This document shows, piece after piece, positions 1 to 6,148 of a stretch of 29,769 nucleotides of DNA. The position numbers and the translations under genes were made by a program. The notes below the pieces were generated by a model that was not told the origin of the DNA, searched no databases, and saw nothing but the letters and a program-made list of their open reading frames with translations. This DNA is from a plasmid, in sequence record NZ_CP021967.1, one strand, 5' to 3'. Each line of letters begins with the position of its first letter. Position 1 is the stretch's first letter.

Positions 1-843
1 TGGGATTGCCGCTCGTTAACCAATTTTTAGCACAAGGCTACGCGCTTGTGCGTATTTTAAGTGCACTTAAAATCAAACCTAGTACCTATTACAACTGGCG
101 CCATTGGCAGCCCAGTCGACAAGAAAAGCGTAGAGAATCTCTAAAACCTTATATTTTAGACGTTTGGAAAACCTTTAAATTTTATGGTTATCGCCGTATT
201 GCTGCTTATAGTCAACAAACCGACGGTCCGAAAGTATCTGGGTATATGACACTCAAATTGATGCGTGAATTAGGGATTAAATCCCGCATGCAAAAACGTT
301 ATCGCAAGCCAAAAACTGTGGTGACTGTTGATCAAAAGCCCAATTTGATTAGACACTTGCATGATTTGAGCGGTGTTTGGCAAACAGATATCACTTATAT
401 TCAGTTGACTAATCACAGATGGGTCTATTTAGCGACCGTTTTGGATCCTGAGAAGAGAAAAGTATTGGGCTATAAAATTGGCGATACAATGACAGCCGAG
501 CTAGCCACAAGTGCCTTACAGATGGCTTTAGATAAGCATCGAAGGCCATTAATTATTCATTCAGATATGGGGTCACATACACGAGTGCTGAATTTAATAT
601 TAAATGTCAAAATTATGGCTTGAAACATTCATATTCACTCAAAGGACATCCATACGATAATGGCCGTATGGAAGCATTTCATTCAATATTGAAACGTGAA
701 GAGGTGTATTTGAAGGCATACGAAACATTAACGCAAGTCCAAGCAGCCATTGGTTGGTATATCAATTTTTATAATCGCAATCGTATCTCAAATGTTGCCT
801 AAGTAACTGAATAAAAATAGTCCAATTTATTGACTTCTGAGCA
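1..843 (+). mobile_element. IS3-family element type A, 3' part (843 bp) of a copy split by the window origin. Joined to 29414..29769 it gives a 1199-bp copy.
   Basis: Sequence is identical to the reverse complement of 14606..15448 and 16544..17386. The right terminus ...TTGACTTCTGAGCA ends at 843. The window end ...GTCCGTAATG runs seamlessly into the window start TGGGATTGCC, as in the internal copies. Confidence 0.85.
6..802 (+). pseudogene. IS type-A orfB (DDE integrase/transposase), frameshifted and split into 6..623 and 620..802.
   Basis: Here ...HSDMGS is followed by HTRVLNLILNVKIMA*. The diverged paralog at 24587..25024 and the type-B IS both read HSDMGSQ(Y/F)TS...HSYSLKGHPYDN... through this point. 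The difference is a 1-nt deletion (CAATACACG -> CATACACG) that separates DD from the E of the DDE triad. Confidence 0.8.
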
Positions 844-1073
844 CATAGCACTGTTCATTGTTTTAGGCTTATCAATAATAATTGGCTCTTCTTGGTTGAT
901 CGTAAACTATCCACAAAAAATTATTTACTTCGTTACTATGATAGTTGGAGTTGTCATAATAATTATGACTAAACCCATTTGGCCCACAAAAAATAGAAAT
1001 GCTGAATAATTCAGAAATGATTGAGTTAAGGGGCTATAACTATCAATTGTCTCTGTTAAATACTATAAAAAAA

Positions 1074-1113
1074 GCCTCTAACAAATCAACTTGGCTTGTT
1101 AGAGGCTTTTTTT
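1074..1113. terminator. Rho-independent terminator, bidirectional (A-run before, T-run after).
   Basis: Stem GCCTCTAACAA / TTGTTAGAGGC with a TTTTTTTATTT tail. Confidence 0.6.
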
Positions 1114-1217
1114 ATTTAGATAATATAATAGCCCTTGAAATGTAAGGCTAAATTGAATGGCTAAGCGTTGCTATATAGAGGCGCATAAATACTTTGTTTC
1201 TCAATTTTGGCTAGGCA

Positions 1218-1226
1218 TGTTATAAT
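1218..1226 (+). promoter_or_regulatory. Extended -10 promoter (TGTTATAAT) driving a short + strand transcript.
   Basis: Canonical TGnTATAAT. An intrinsic terminator lies ~85 nt downstream. Confidence 0.45.
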
Positions 1227-1232
1227 GAATAC

Positions 1233-1350
1233 AGAAAAAGGAAGCCTTGCGCTAACAAGACTTCCCATTATAGAGCCGTATAAGACGGTGGCAAACTTAA
1301 AACGATTAAATAACCGCTAGCTTGGCAGAGCTAAGGCGGTTATTTTTTTT
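1233..1350 (+). ncRNA. Candidate ~110-nt sRNA (antitoxin-like RNA of module a), ending in a bidirectional terminator shared with the convergent peptide gene.
   Basis: Promoter at 1218..1226. Terminator stem TAACCGC...GCGGTTA (1311..1342) plus a T8 tract. No plausible ORF with an RBS. Confidence 0.35.
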
Positions 1351-1444
1351 GTTGGTTTTTAATCAACTCAACAACTAATGCTAGTAAGGTAACTATGAAA
1401 GTACCAAACATTAGCATAAGCTGTAAAGCGTCCGATACGGACAC
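1340..1444 (-). CDS. 34-aa hydrophobic peptide (VSVSDALQLMLMFGTFIVTLLALVVELIKNQQKK; GTG start). Candidate Fst/Ldr-like type I toxin (module a).
   Basis: RBS AAGGAG lies 7 nt upstream of GTG. The peptide has a single TM-like core and a Lys-rich tail. The stop abuts the bidirectional terminator. An upstream TGTATAAT -10 on the minus strand (1551..1546) gives a ~95-nt 5' UTR. The ORF is under 60 aa and so is absent from the ORF track. Confidence 0.4.
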   Translation of the reverse strand: MSVSDALQLMLMFGTFIVTLLALVVELIKNQQKK

Positions 1445-1649
1445 TTGGGCTACTCCTTTCCTAGAATGTGAGTTTATAGTTTTTACACCATAAGCACCAC
1501 CCCCCTTAAGGAAATAGCCACCGCCTTAACTTCTCTACTTGAACTATTATACAGGATAAAGCGTGATTTACCTATTGATGATTAATGCTCTAATATCCTG
1601 AACGGCTAGTTTTCTATTTTCAATATAAATATAATTATCCGACATGTTT

Positions 1650-1967
1650 TCAATGAACCCAGATATATTTTTTTTTGGTTTCATGATTGAAGTTAGTTTC
1701 ATCTAATTGAATAGTCACAGTATAATAATTTGCTAATGCGTGCATTGCATTATGAAATATTTTATCCGTAGTCATTTTGGGTAACTTTTTTTCACTATAT
1801 ACATTTTCCTGATCCATTTTCCTTAATGCAGAAGTATGGTCGCTTAAAAAGAAGCCACGCCACTTTTTAATGCCCCTATCTCTATAATCATACTGAAAGT
1901 AATTATTGATTAAAGCGCTAAAATCTTGATCCATTTCATTTCTCATTTCAAATTTTTTATTCCTCAA
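1650..1967 (-). CDS. Hypothetical protein, 105 aa (motif YDYRDRGIKKWRGFFLSDHT), transcribed divergently from the AT-rich two-gene operon.
   Basis: Intact ORF in a very AT-rich segment. No family recognised by eye. Confidence 0.5.
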   Translation of the reverse strand: MRNKKFEMRNEMDQDFSALINNYFQYDYRDRGIKKWRGFFLSDHTSALRKMDQENVYSEKKLPKMTTDKIFHNAMHALANYYTVTIQLDETNFNHETKKKYIWVH

Positions 1968-2067
1968 TTATACGAACGTTAGTTCCCTTATGCAAGCGGC
2001 TCGATTTTAAACTTTTGTTATATTATATATGTAGTTCAAAAATATAGACTAAAAGGAAAATTTTGTT

Positions 2068-2739
2068 ATGCTTAAAATACTAAGTGAATCCATATACCAA
2101 ATTTACAAGTTTACATCAGGGATAGTATCATGGGGATTAATTAATATACCTGTTAGCTGGTTATCTTTTTTTATAGCCATCATAGGTTTGGCTAGGAATA
2201 ATCATAATAAATTACGACAAAGATTTGATTATTCATCAGTAACCCACCCATGTAATACAGTTATTACTGTTTACAACGACAGTTTAGTAACAGAAACTTC
2301 ACGATTTAATGGAATAATAGTCACTGCAAAAAAGCCAAACTTACTACGGAAAAAAGTAATTAAATGGAATTTGAAAAATAAAAAATTTGGACATAATAAA
2401 CAGCTTTTATTCCCTTTTCATCAAATGGTAAATATTCAGAATAACGAAGAAATAAAACAATCTGATTTTTTTGCTGTTAAGAGCCATGAAATGAGAGAAA
2501 TTATAATCAATAAAAAAAATTTTTTAAATTCAATAAAAAATAAGCTATACAGTAATATTAAGGCACTTACAAAGTTTACTAATAAGAAAGCATTTTATGT
2601 ATATTTTGTTTATGAAACGGTTACTGGTAAAACAAGAATGTTTGCTGTTAAAATTATTTTTGATGACCCTATTGGTCAGGATCTAAATATTGACGATTGT
2701 AATAAAGTGCTACAAGCTAAATTAAAGTACAATAACTAA
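2068..2739 (+). CDS. Hypothetical membrane-anchored protein, 223 aa. One or two N-terminal TM helices, then a Lys/Asn-rich soluble domain.
   Basis: Hydrophobic stretch GIVSWGLINIPVSWLSFFIAIIGLA at residues ~18-42. RBS AAAGGAAAA upstream. The next gene starts 53 bp downstream, so the two are probably co-transcribed. Confidence 0.6.
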   Translation: MLKILSESIYQIYKFTSGIVSWGLINIPVSWLSFFIAIIGLARNNHNKLRQRFDYSSVTHPCNTVITVYNDSLVTETSRFNGIIVTAKKPNLLRKKVIKWNLKNKKFGHNKQLLFPFHQMVNIQNNEEIKQSDFFAVKSHEMREIIINKKNFLNSIKNKLYSNIKALTKFTNKKAFYVYFVYETVTGKTRMFAVKIIFDDPIGQDLNIDDCNKVLQAKLKYNN

Positions 2740-2792
2740 CAAGTTAAGGGTAAAATACAACTAATATTTAAAAAAAGGGATAGCATTAATAG

Positions 2793-3899
2793 ATGGATTA
2801 CACTGAATTCTACAAACATGTTCAAAACGAATTGAAAGTTACCGGAACAGATAACCAGTTTCATCTGTATTATGATGAAACAAATAACTTTAGATCTTTT
2901 AAAGTAGACGATAAAGGTTTTAATGCTGACGAACATGCCTATTTCATACTTGGAGGAATTGGCATAAAAACCGACTCGCATGACATTGTTGAAGGTGTTG
3001 ATAGCCTCTTCTCAAAATTTGGTATGCAAGCAAATGCTCAAGAAATAAAGTTTAAGCATATCAAGAATGGTGCCAATAATTTTATTGAGTTAATGGATAA
3101 AAAAAGAGTAAAAGTTTTTTTGAATTGGCTTTATGAAAATGACAATGTTTTTATCCACTATAATTATGTAGATAATTTTTATTTCTCTATTGTTGACATT
3201 GTTGACTCTTTACCCAATTCAATGCTTCTCGGCATAGAATTTAATCGTGACCTAAAAGATTGTTTGTATCAAATTATGAAAACTGATAAAGAATATTTTA
3301 CAAACCTTTTCGTTTTATTAGGCTATCCAAATGTTAACAACCCTAAATTACTAATAAATAAAATTATAGAAAAGATAAATGAAATTACCCCATACGGAGA
3401 TGATTTTTGTTTAGAGTATTTACGACAGATCTTAAAATCAGCAATTAGGTCCAAACTTCCTCTTTTAGAAAATAATGTCGAGGGTGAATTGATAGATAAC
3501 TACTCTGATCTATACGCACAGAGTATTTATTCTTTTCCAAATTCTCATCACAAATTTGATCATGAATATAATATTGAGCCATTTTTAGCGAATAACCCTA
3601 TTTATGTAAATGACAAACTAGTAGACTATATTTTTGATGATTCTAAACATTCTCGATTATTACAATTATCTGATTTAACAGTTGGCATTTTAAGACATTG
3701 GATGAGTTTCCTTGAAAAAAATTCGGAATCGAAAATTTCAGATATTTTAAACAGTTTATCTAGCAATCAAGAAACAAACATTCGAAAATTACAACAAGTT
3801 ATGAACAATTCACTATCTGAAAGTCAGGGTTTCAAAATTGGTTCTGGGAGTAATACGTTTGAAAATAAAGTTTCCGATTTCTTAACTTATAAATTTTAA
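2793..3899 (+). CDS. Hypothetical 368-aa protein with DUF3800-like motifs (FHLYYDETNN near the N-terminus, SRLLQLSDLTVGIL near the C-terminus). Candidate effector of an uncharacterised defence/Abi pair.
   Basis: Long intact ORF in the ~27% GC island. The family assignment comes from remembered consensus motifs (iyiDESG ... QlADl) and is not verified. Confidence 0.65.
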   Translation: MDYTEFYKHVQNELKVTGTDNQFHLYYDETNNFRSFKVDDKGFNADEHAYFILGGIGIKTDSHDIVEGVDSLFSKFGMQANAQEIKFKHIKNGANNFIELMDKKRVKVFLNWLYENDNVFIHYNYVDNFYFSIVDIVDSLPNSMLLGIEFNRDLKDCLYQIMKTDKEYFTNLFVLLGYPNVNNPKLLINKIIEKINEITPYGDDFCLEYLRQILKSAIRSKLPLLENNVEGELIDNYSDLYAQSIYSFPNSHHKFDHEYNIEPFLANNPIYVNDKLVDYIFDDSKHSRLLQLSDLTVGILRHWMSFLEKNSESKISDILNSLSSNQETNIRKLQQVMNNSLSESQGFKIGSGSNTFENKVSDFLTYKF

Positions 3900-4104
3900 C
3901 TAGAATAATTCAGATACTCGATTATTACTGACTATAAAAGATCCAGAACATATCAACTTAAGGACGGTAAGAAATTATATTAAATTTAATTTGCGATACA
4001 AGATAATGTGCATTAAAAGGTGACATATCTTAACAATTGTGTCGCTTTTTTTTTGTGCCTTATAATTAAAGGTGTTAAAATAAGTCATAACTTACCACCA
4101 TAAA

Positions 4105-4219
4105 GCAGTCCAATTAATTTATTGACTTCTAAGTAAAATACCAGGAGTTTTGCTATGAGTTAACTATGATCCTAGGTGGTCACTAAAACATTCCTTAATT
4201 CAGGGTCTATAATTATAAT
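4105..4219. repeat. Repeat R copy 1 (~115 bp). Its first ~30 bp resemble an IS3-type terminal IR (CAGTCCAATTAATTTATTGACTTCTAAG).
   Basis: ~95% identical to 6034..6148. Resembles the type-A right end ...GTCCAATTTATTGACTTCTGAGCA. Confidence 0.75.
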
Positions 4220-4287
4220 AATGGCACTTTAAAGCGCCTGCTCATAAGTCAATAATTCGGAATGTTTTTTATCTAGGGCTGAACTGA

Positions 4288-5082
4288 TTAGGCAACTTTT
4301 ATTTTTTGATTGGCAAGACTGATTCTTTCGTTGTTGAACCAATGAATATACTTGGACACATCTAAAATTAGATGTGCAATCGATGGAAACCGGAATTGAT
4401 AAATCATTTCACGCTTTAATAGGGAGTGAAAACTTTCAATTTTGGCATTATCATATGGATGTCCTAGTTTTGAATACGAATGATCAATTTTATGTCGCTT
4501 TAACAAATTTTCAAAGCCAAAACTAGTGAACTGACTGCCCATATCAGTATGTAAATAATTTGGTTTTTTATCAGTTGACAGCGATCTTTGTAGTGTTGTA
4601 ACTACCAATTTGGTATCCATCGTGGCACTGATTGGATGGGCTAATATCTTACGCGTTTGTAACTCTAAAACTGACGCTAAATAGACCCACTGACCATTAC
4701 TCAACTTTAAATAAGTGATGTCCATGCTCCAAGCGTTGGCTTCGGGTAAATGCCTGATTAAGTTGGGACGTTGACGATAATCAACAGTTGTCGTTGGTTT
4801 GTTAAATCGACGACTCATGACAGAGTATATGCCAGCTTCTCGCATTAAACGACGAACTCGGTTGGTTCCATGATGCAAATTCAGATCAGCTAATGCTAAT
4901 CGCAGACGTGGCGCGCCATAAGCTTTATAGTTATTTTGCCAAATTTCACGCAACAAAGCTTTTAAGATCATGTCTTCTCGTTGTCGTTGGCTCTCAGTAT
5001 AGTGAACCCAATCAAAGTAGGTGCTTTTGGGTATTTTGAGTAGGCGAAGCACCATCATGAGTTTAAAATGCTGTTTTAGCAA
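4288..5082 (-). CDS. IS type-B orfB, DDE transposase (integrase core). The frame is open upstream into orfA, consistent with an OrfAB fusion.
   Basis: HTDMGSQFTS...HPYDNAKIESFHSLLKRE motif. The orfB frame sits at -1 relative to orfA with ~15 open codons of overlap. Confidence 0.85.
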   Translation of the reverse strand: MLKQHFKLMMVLRLLKIPKSTYFDWVHYTESQRQREDMILKALLREIWQNNYKAYGAPRLRLALADLNLHHGTNRVRRLMREAGIYSVMSRRFNKPTTTVDYRQRPNLIRHLPEANAWSMDITYLKLSNGQWVYLASVLELQTRKILAHPISATMDTKLVVTTLQRSLSTDKKPNYLHTDMGSQFTSFGFENLLKRHKIDHSYSKLGHPYDNAKIESFHSLLKREMIYQFRFPSIAHLILDVSKYIHWFNNERISLANQKIKVA

Positions 5083-5114
5083 TGATTGTACAATAGGAAA
5101 ATGGGTCTTACGTG

Positions 5115-5390
5115 TTACTTGCGATGTTCGCCCAGCAAAACGGCCGCAATTTTTAAAATTTCGTTTTCTTCTTTGAGTCTTGCGACTTCTTTCTGCATTG
5201 CATTAAATTGGGCGCGAGTCACTGGCTTACCGGTAACGTCCGTCCCAATGATTTGGGCTTTCTTCACCCAACCCGTGACGGTTTGTACAGCCAAATGGTA
5301 TTCATTGGCTAGAGAATTAGCAGAACGTCCCTCGTTATACAAGGTGACAATTGATGACTTAAATTCTGTTGAGTATCGCTTAGCTTTCAT
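5115..5390 (-). CDS. IS type-B orfA (HTH + leucine zipper), with a putative T_TTA_AAA slippery heptamer at ...ENEILK.
   Basis: 91 aa with a LARLKEENEILKIA zipper. The heptamer TTTAAAA sits in the 0 frame just before the overlap with the orfB frame. Confidence 0.8.
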   Translation of the reverse strand: MKAKRYSTEFKSSIVTLYNEGRSANSLANEYHLAVQTVTGWVKKAQIIGTDVTGKPVTRAQFNAMQKEVARLKEENEILKIAAVLLGEHRK

Positions 5391-5585
5391 AATATAAAAA
5401 AACTCCTATACTTGATTATCTCGGATTATGCCCTAGAAATAAAGCGGTCCGGATTTTCAGTATACGAGCAGCCACAAAGTACATAGAAGACCTTGATACT
5501 TATACACCTATGTTGATGGAAGCATTGCATTTAAGTTTATGGTGTATCATGTTGTTATACAAATTAAAATTATAGGTGGTTTAGA

Positions 5586-6002
5586 ATGAAAAAAATTTAT
5601 TTTTTATGTACAGGAAATTCTTGTCGCAGTCAAATGGCTGAAGGATATGCAAAAAAAATATTGCCGGCAAATGAGTTTCAAATCGAGAGTGCAGGGATTG
5701 AAACTCATGGGTTAAATCTAAATGCTGTTAAAGTTATGGCTGAAGATGGAGTAGATATTAGTAGCCACTACTCTAAATTAATTGATCTAAATTATTTGAA
5801 CACTTCAGATTTAGTTATTACTTTATGTGGTGATGCCAAGGATAAATGTCCTATGCTTCCCCCTCAAACCAAGAGTTTACACTGGCCTTTATCTGACCCA
5901 GCGCAAGCCACAGGAACTTTAGAAGAACAACTACAAGAATTCCGTAAGGTTCGTGACGAAATTAAAAAATTAGTTACAAGTTTGAATAACTACGTTCATT
6001 AA
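5586..6002 (+). CDS. arsC: Arsenate reductase, thioredoxin-coupled LMW-PTP type (pI258 ArsC-like).
   Basis: P-loop CTGNSCRS (CX5R) at residues 9-16, plus the conserved Cys pair in [10 protein letters not shown]. 138 aa. Confidence 0.9.
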
Positions 6003-6033
6003 TAAAAAAACGCCATATAGTGCCGCAGCAAAA

Positions 6034-6148
6034 CAGTCCAATTAATTTATTGACTTCTAAGTAAAATACCAGGAGTTTTGCTATGAGTTAACTATGATCC
6101 TAGGTAGTCACTAAAATATTCCTTAATTTAGGGGCTATAATTATAGGA
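6034..6148. repeat. Repeat R copy 2. Together with copy 1 it brackets the [IS type B + arsC] segment as a direct repeat.
   Basis: See 4105..4219. It ends in GGGGCTATAATTATAGG (a -10-like TATAAT) immediately upstream of the arsR-rhodanese gene. Confidence 0.75.

Follow-up and report, generated by a model that had tools for sequence, protein, structure and literature searches.

The DUF3800 domain is widespread: it has been met with in a retron effector, in an accessory of Cas12a2 and Cas13, next to eleven orphan RNA motifs, and in a candidate defence gene that stands alone. Typical DUF3800 proteins are 215–265 amino acids (aa) long, and we know of no member with a demonstrated activity. The closest catalogued family to the protein described here is PDC-S51 of PADLOC; what defined the PDC families was the position of their genes inside BREX, DISARM or type I restriction-modification (RM) systems (Payne et al., bioRxiv 10.1101/2024.01.29.577857). 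The present gene, which codes for a 368-aa DUF3800 protein, lies on a pLEUM1-type plasmid of Leuconostoc mesenteroides; the whole stretch of DNA that was analysed, hereafter the window, comprises 29,769 nucleotides of sequence record NZ_CP021967.1.

An initial annotation, made from the sequence alone, had described an AT-rich island of three genes bracketed by insertion sequences (IS), in which a membrane-anchored protein and the DUF3800-like protein formed a candidate abortive-infection (Abi) module. All three open reading frames (ORFs) were found where it had placed them (Table 1). The low G+C content (GC) was also seen: positions 1996–4238 have a GC of 0.280 (28.0%) versus 0.355 (35.5%) for the window, about 2.3 standard deviations under the sliding-window mean, and are its lowest-GC 2.2-kb stretch. 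Positions 1000–4238 occur at ≥99.3% identity in 15 sequenced plasmids, including pLEUM1 of strain ATCC 8293. Because RefSeq names the 368-aa gene product "DUF3800 domain-containing protein" (on pLEUM1 of ATCC 8293 as well) and a matching PADLOC model exists, the gene is already annotated and catalogued as a defence candidate, and its recognition adds little as a discovery. It is a convenient test case: the gene is small and complete, its plasmid occurs naturally in a food-grade bacterium, and phages of that bacterium can be obtained.

Family, fold and putative active site

Membership of the 368-aa protein in DUF3800 and PDC-S51 is near certain, and the identity first suggested from sequence motifs was thus confirmed. 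The protein passes the Pfam DUF3800 model (PF12686) at 39.4 bits, where the gathering threshold is 21, covering profile positions 2–148 of 149, and matches PDC-S51 (PDLC05033) over its full length (E 4.2e-115, 382.6 bits; residues 2–366 on profile positions 4–371 of 376). It also matched phrog_15126; a scan of NCBIfam gave no significant match, and EutB, at 18 bits in both Pfam and NCBIfam, fell far under the cut-offs and was judged a chance hit. In the protein database, 442 relatives were found; they are typically 366–387 aa in length and come from Bacillota, Bacteroidota, Proteobacteria and Cyanobacteria. A C-terminal extension had been remarked on in the initial annotation, and residues 303–368 do lie beyond the Pfam match; however, because the PDC-S51 relatives are of the length just given, this region is a conserved part of the subfamily.

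Both signature motifs named in the initial annotation are real, and they are the most conserved stretches of the protein in an alignment of 39 sequences with identities down to 31%. FHLYYDETNN was found at residues 23–32, AYFILGGIGI at 49–58, and SRLLQLSDLTVGIL at 287–300; D28-E29-T30 and Q291-L-S-D294 are the N-terminal DE(S/T) and C-terminal QxxD motifs of DUF3800, respectively. Residues D28, E29, N32, N44, K86, H89, H122, D135, D138, K155, Y178, P179, D256, E258, S284, Q291, S293 and D294 are invariant in all 39 homologs; of these, D28, E29, D135, D138, D256, E258 and D294, together with K86, H89, H122 and K155, are candidate active-site residues. Compared with its 87% identical counterpart on the chromosome of Weissella paramesenteroides, the gene has a ratio of nonsynonymous to synonymous substitution rates (dN/dS) of 0.39, i.e., it is under moderate purifying selection.

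The AF2 model of the protein (predicted local distance difference test, pLDDT, 93.3; predicted template modelling score, pTM, 0.91) has a type-2 RNase H-like core, helical insertions and a C-terminal helical region, the predicted catalytic core being of the RNase H2 type. Foldseek searches with this model ranked RNase H-type families first, and an RNase H fold for DUF3800 has been predicted independently (PMC7736814, PMC10910872, PMC12669027); the Pfam scan of the protein gave no match to RNase_HII. The adjacent, invariant D28-E29 pair is at the end of the first strand, D256 and E258 close a later strand, and D294 opens the QLSD helix. Placed by element order, these invariant residues fall on the expected secondary-structure elements, and D28, E29, D256/E258 and D294 would make up a DEDD-type two-metal nuclease site.

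Defence context and probable function

The claim that DUF3800 relatives occur in defence islands held for the PDC-S51 homologs, which have RM, Abi and other anti-phage genes alongside. In Streptococcus orisasini the homolog lies between a gene for a reverse transcriptase (RT) with AAA_13 and HsdS, and in a Clostridium metagenome-assembled genome it directly follows HsdR; other homologs adjoin AbiH, SIR2 with HerA, or AAA_13, and a Stk2-like kinase gene is found just before the homolog in six Streptococcus loci. PD-T7-1 is directly downstream of the homolog in 8 loci, and is a neighbour cluster in 11 Bacteroidota or Betaproteobacteria loci. From gene order, PDC-S51 and PD-T7-1 could form a pair that recurs within that subclade. 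The PD-T7-1-like gene (445–500 aa) is on the same strand at about +1070 to +2700 from the DUF3800 start in loci L030, L038, L044, L051, L057, L061, L074 and L075, and its L044 representative matches the PADLOC model at E 1e-160.

In the P2-like phage fiAA91-ss, a 368-aa PDC-S51 homolog of 30% identity (NC_022750.1, 14571–15677; locus L109, 4001–5107) lies between the tail genes gpG and gpFI. This is a moron-like, non-structural slot, and we take it to be the site of the P2 non-essential exclusion gene Z/fun. Among 5426 complete E. coli genomes, 6 carry this homolog, with no annotation beyond hypothetical or DUF3800 protein; Rousset et al. 2022 covered the old/tin hotspot of P2 but not the gpG-gpFI slot.

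On this evidence we lean, with some reservation, towards the 368-aa protein being a stand-alone anti-phage or anti-mobile-element nuclease carried on a single-gene cassette; both the defence phenotype and the nuclease activity are what we infer. The gene would be expressed from the plasmid, probably by read-through from the upstream gene for the 223-aa transmembrane (TM) protein, and upon infection the putative metal-dependent nuclease would cut nucleic acid, such that phage replication would be blocked or the infected cell aborted. An RNA:DNA hybrid, a structured RNA or a replication intermediate might be the most plausible substrate, a guess prompted by the RNase H fold and by the recurrent association of DUF3800 with retron multicopy single-stranded DNA (msDNA) and structured RNAs. 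If the protein were anti-phage, PDC-S51 would pass from a candidate to a system and the DUF3800 domain would gain its first biochemical handle; there would also be relevance to phage resistance of Leuconostoc starters in kimchi and dairy fermentation.

Several points weigh against a defence nuclease. The Foldseek likeness to RNase H2 has E > 0.5, insignificant on its own, and when the family profile was run over the PDB sequences with hmmsearch, no solved RNase H came up, the sole hit being a spurious hemerythrin at E 0.08. The catalytic tetrad D28/E29/D256/D294 was assigned from the order of secondary-structure elements and is correspondingly putative, and Altae-Tran et al. describe a "catalytic rearrangement". 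The source paper of the PDC families describes its 145 PDC systems as untested (bioRxiv 10.1101/2024.01.29.577857), and our literature search found no paper mentioning PDC-S51. Lastly, the embedding by which PDC families were defined is seen in the homologs but not at the present locus, which lies outside any recognised defence system, between a type I toxin-antitoxin (TA) locus and arsC, with IS elements as further neighbours.

It is unlikely, though far from absurd, that DUF3800 serves the plasmid instead of host immunity, either as a nuclease in competition between mobile elements, keeping out other plasmids or ICEs, or in maintenance or addiction alongside the type I TA locus. Plasmids that carry the gene come from many genera (74 records, of which 45 are conjugative) and a copy is found on a temperate phage, but the majority of homologs are on chromosomes, where RM, Abi and other anti-phage genes flank or enclose them. 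Similarly, although a TA locus adjoins the cassette region and a DUF3800 gene was scored essential in Legionella transposon sequencing (Tn-seq) among accessory TA-like genes (bioRxiv 10.1101/2020.10.01.323287), no conserved antitoxin-like small gene was found beside the PDC-S51 homologs, and some sister plasmids (H85, H16) persist although their DUF3800 gene has been interrupted or deleted.

Cassette limits and plasmid neighbours

The features of the locus are collected in Table 1. Similarity by blastn to loci L083–L086 begins at position 2759, and the DNA shared with the W. paramesenteroides chromosome is limited to 2759–4219; in Weissella, the gene upstream of DUF3800 codes for an unrelated 185-aa TM/coiled-coil protein. 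The hairpin and T-run downstream of the gene are retained both in Weissella and in locus L087, and are probably the 3' end of the DUF3800 transcript as well as the right end of the cassette. Judged from these limits of similarity, DUF3800 moves by itself, on a cassette of ~1.3 kb that spans 2759 to about 4055. Where this cassette landed in the pLEUM1-type plasmids, the type I TA locus is nearby, a membrane-protein gene common on plasmids precedes it, and arsC comes after it.

Table 1. Features of the DUF3800 locus and its surroundings (window coordinates).
Feature	Position	Strand	Remarks
DUF3800 / PADLOC PDC-S51 gene, 368 aa	2793–3899	+	Actual feature of interest
34-bp leader with ribosome-binding site AAGGGA	2759–2792	+	Left end of DNA common to the Weissella DUF3800 cassette
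Terminator-like hairpin and T9 run	4015–4055	+	RNA fold −16.5 kcal/mol, z −4.5
Conserved non-coding plasmid junction element	4056–4238	+	Second copy at 6030–6145, on the far side of arsC
Gene for 223-aa N-terminally membrane-anchored protein	2068–2739	+	Neighbour; small Lactobacillaceae plasmid family
105-aa ORF, putatively YolD-like, frameshift-truncated	1650–1967	−	Unrelated neighbour
Type I TA locus	1223–1560	both	RatA-like antitoxin RNA 1223–1312 (+); 34-aa holin-like toxin ORF 1340–1444 (−)
rli28/BsrG-like RNA	1378–1560	−	Toxin ORF of the type I locus falls within
IS3-family insertion sequence	4239–5470	−	orfA 5115–5390, orfB 4288–5082; between junction element and arsC; 3-bp target duplication

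That the 223-aa membrane protein and DUF3800 constitute a two-gene Abi module, a membrane sensor or effector together with a nuclease, as the initial annotation had envisaged, is in our judgement improbable; the idea was kept in view of the operon structure, and since TM-anchored genes that are unrelated to one another recur just upstream of DUF3800. The N-terminal anchor was verified (a hydrophobic segment at ~19–44 and AF2 helices at 2–26 and 29–45), as was the co-orientation of the two genes 53 bp apart. No RNA secondary structure was predicted between them (minimum free energy 0) and no terminator lies there; because this gap is short and unstructured, the two genes are probably co-transcribed on the present plasmid. 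Both are very AT-rich (GC 0.266 for the TM gene and 0.288 for DUF3800), the Weissella DUF3800 gene lies ~52 bp behind its own, unrelated, N-terminally TM-anchored protein, and a 45%-identical member of the TM family has a DUF6119 protein gene 125 bp downstream. The 223-aa protein itself has, however, no effector-like fold: its C-terminal domain is beta-sandwich-like and moderately modelled, its model gave no informative structural match, and the protein had no match in any family library scanned, PADLOC included.

The distributions of the two families tell against partnership. The TM family is rare, with 16 representatives among 1.84 billion proteins by exhaustive phmmer (a word-indexed search returned only 2 clusters), and was located by tblastn on 75 plasmids. 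DUF3800 stands behind the TM gene only in 15 near-identical Leuconostoc plasmids, a near-clonal set; the other 60, from Lactiplantibacillus, Lacticaseibacillus, Levilactobacillus and Pediococcus, with TM proteins at 40–46% identity, have no PDC-S51 homolog. Conversely, at ~75 independent PDC-S51 loci neither a TM-family gene nor any consistent small TM gene adjoins the homolog. When ORF neighbourhoods of PDC-S51 were clustered by BLAST over 80 genome loci, no neighbour family was common, and small TM proteins were not found upstream above the expected frequency; 6 metagenome contexts likewise showed no conserved neighbour. The homolog of the Weissella 185-aa protein occupies the same backbone slot, between toxin and recombinase genes, in an L. 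plantarum plasmid that lacks DUF3800. Furthermore, one metagenomic lineage kept the TM gene (85% identity) though its DUF3800 gene has lost the start codon and residues 88–357, and the TM-gene dN/dS in this comparison is ~1.0. The initial annotation had itself named the absence of conserved pairing in other genomes as a sign against a partnership, and this absence is what was found; since pairing is not conserved, the TM gene is not to be counted a partner of DUF3800. The proposed three-gene module likewise fell with the separate distributions of the TM gene, the 105-aa gene and DUF3800, and the TM protein and the 105-aa gene product are, as far as comparative genomics can tell, ordinary plasmid neighbours.

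The surroundings of the TM family members themselves were varied. Among three inspected TM-family plasmids, a serine recombinase gene follows the TM gene in two (L106, L108) and a holin-like toxin gene precedes it in two (L107, L108); in metagenomic relatives, the TM gene either is followed by a DUF6119 protein gene or overlaps the end of an MvaI/BcnI restriction gene. The DUF6119 protein mentioned above (L094–L097, e.g., L094 4001–6482) is 564 aa in length (Pfam E 3.7e-34), and upstream at these loci are a UvrD-like helicase gene and two genes of unknown function; the DUF6119 protein had no PADLOC match, and the sole DUF6119 paper found was irrelevant. A slot in Lactobacillaceae plasmids adjoins the holin-like type I toxin and is ahead of the serine recombinase in L106, L108, L110 and L104. 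It contains members of the 223-aa family (221–268 aa) or of the family of the Weissella 185-aa protein (193 aa in Lp16C), and in L104 two other hypothetical proteins of 279 and 235 aa. The mutually unrelated, TM-anchored slot proteins of ~185–270 aa, namely the 223-aa and 185-aa families and possibly others, might represent a new class of plasmid-borne exclusion or Abi factors, acting in some plasmids with the effector behind them, but we hold this to be doubtful. Were it true, the pairing of TM protein and nuclease would be real but modular and not family-specific, with DUF3800 as the effector in Leuconostoc and Weissella, and DUF6119 in the metagenomic relative.

The divergent 105-aa ORF matched phrog_16307 (E 9e-27) and is a truncated copy of a 121–133-aa protein, a frameshift in the A-run near 1665–1675 having removed ~22 C-terminal residues. 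Its DRGxxKWxGFxLSDHT motif is presumably that of YolD-like proteins. By BLASTP (E 1e-13) the ORF is related to the gene that closes a Y-family polymerase operon in L107, a plasmid of L. plantarum; no polymerase gene adjoins it here, and by these resemblances the gene would be a remnant of, or a companion to, plasmid Y-family polymerase operons. A Pfam scan of the ORF at E ≤ 1 returned nothing beyond one spurious family; Glyco_hydro_115, IglJ and MPN555 were far below their cut-offs and were dismissed as chance. The 105-aa gene and the holin-like toxin recur in other Leuconostoc plasmids without DUF3800 (L104, L105), similarity to which ends at ~1995; the cargo beyond this point is either two unrelated hypothetical genes or an N6-methylase with Eco57I-like RM.

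At the type I TA locus, the Rfam matches were RF01776 (91.6 bits) and RF01492 (69.3 bits), and the RefSeq label of the toxin is "putative holin-like toxin". A 59-aa ORF (830–1009, plus strand) between an IS3 remnant and the TA locus has two predicted hydrophobic helices, is given no RefSeq annotation in the sister plasmids, and may not be a gene. An 81-aa antisense ORF (2736–2981) was disregarded as a by-product of AT-rich DNA.

The bracketing of the island by IS elements was upheld in part: IS3-family transposase ORFs are indeed present at 6–802 and 4288–5390, but the element at 4239–5470 is a recent, private insertion. It was defined by comparison with pPUL03_1, in which it is absent, and arsC directly follows DUF3800 in 14 sister plasmids. 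Because this IS is private, with a short target duplication, and the sister plasmids are without it, the bracketing is partly incidental.

The junction element to the left of this IS is found on 93 Lactobacillales plasmids of at least 10 genera, mostly at 90–99% identity, and is unannotated; it is plasmid backbone and not part of the DUF3800 gene. Its direct copies flank arsC. In other plasmids the element is one variable cassette away from a site-specific integrase of ~195 aa, and the cassettes beside it include MazEF (pSMB74) and a GIY-YIG nuclease (W. confusa); in W. paramesenteroides one strain has SRA and HNH genes there and another has nothing. It resembles a site of recombination, or a junction, within a hotspot for cassettes. 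The SRA-domain and HNH pair, which resembles type IV restriction (L083, 6488–7353), distinguishes the two W. paramesenteroides strains (L083 and L084), and is inserted between the element of the DUF3800 3' flank and the small integrase.

We consider it very unlikely that DUF3800 works with an unrecognised flanking non-coding RNA: although DUF3800 genes are accompanied by eleven different structured RNAs (PMC5737381), the retron type VII effector is a DUF3800 protein (PMC7736814), and ~160 bp of non-coding DNA (3900–4055) accompanies the gene in Weissella, Rfam 15 placed no DUF3800 motif (DUF3800-I to -XI, drum or skipping-rope RNA) in 900–4400 even at E ≤ 10, finding only the RatA and rli28 RNAs of the TA locus, and none in 22 homolog loci; no RT ORF lies in 1–6000, no PADLOC retron model matched, and the only structure in the 3' flank resembles a plain terminator, this flank not being conserved in the family because, in a homolog of 59% identity, the next coding gene begins just 19 bp downstream.

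Comparison with known systems

The reading of the 368-aa protein as a stand-alone defence nuclease invites comparison with several described systems. It resembles the plasmid-borne lactococcal Abi genes in being a single AT-rich gene (GC 0.288), flanked by IS elements, on a plasmid of a lactic acid bacterium, but it matches no Abi model in PADLOC or Pfam. Low GC (about 26–29%) is reportedly a hallmark of abi genes, a view said to come from the 2005 review by Chopin et al.

The retron type VII effector (Mestre et al. 2020, PMC7736814), in which DUF3800 adjoins the RT or is fused to it, has the Pfam domain and the predicted RNase H2-like fold in common with the 368-aa protein; however, the retron proteins lack the Q of QxxD, whereas Q291 is invariant here, and neither an RT gene nor msr/msd is nearby. 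Identity with retron type VII was thus rejected, there being no RT ORF in 1–6000, no retron RNA in the Rfam scans, and a retained Q291. The TPR-DUF3800 accessories of Cas12a2/Cas12a3 and of VI-F (PMC10910872, PMC12669027) likewise place DUF3800 in an immune context, but the 368-aa protein has no TPR domain, and there is no CRISPR array or cas gene in the vicinity. With the type-2 RNases H (HII/H2A/HIII) the likeness is in fold only: identity is 6–15%, and the 368-aa protein is about twice their size, with helical insertions and the additional invariant residues D135, D138 and E258.

Both Pfam DUF3800 motifs, the N-terminal D-E-T and the C-terminal Q-x-S-D, are invariant in this family. The difference lies in size: because 278 residues align to the 149-position Pfam model, the predicted helical insertions, at about 60–118 and 140–250, are large, and a further 66 conserved residues follow at the C-terminus. 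PDC-S51 is closest of all, the match being end to end and in the same length class, with no conserved partner and with relatives beside RM and defence genes. No structural difference from PDC-S51 was apparent; what differs is the setting, here a plasmid of a food-fermentation Leuconostoc beside a type I TA locus and arsC, rather than RM, BREX or DISARM.

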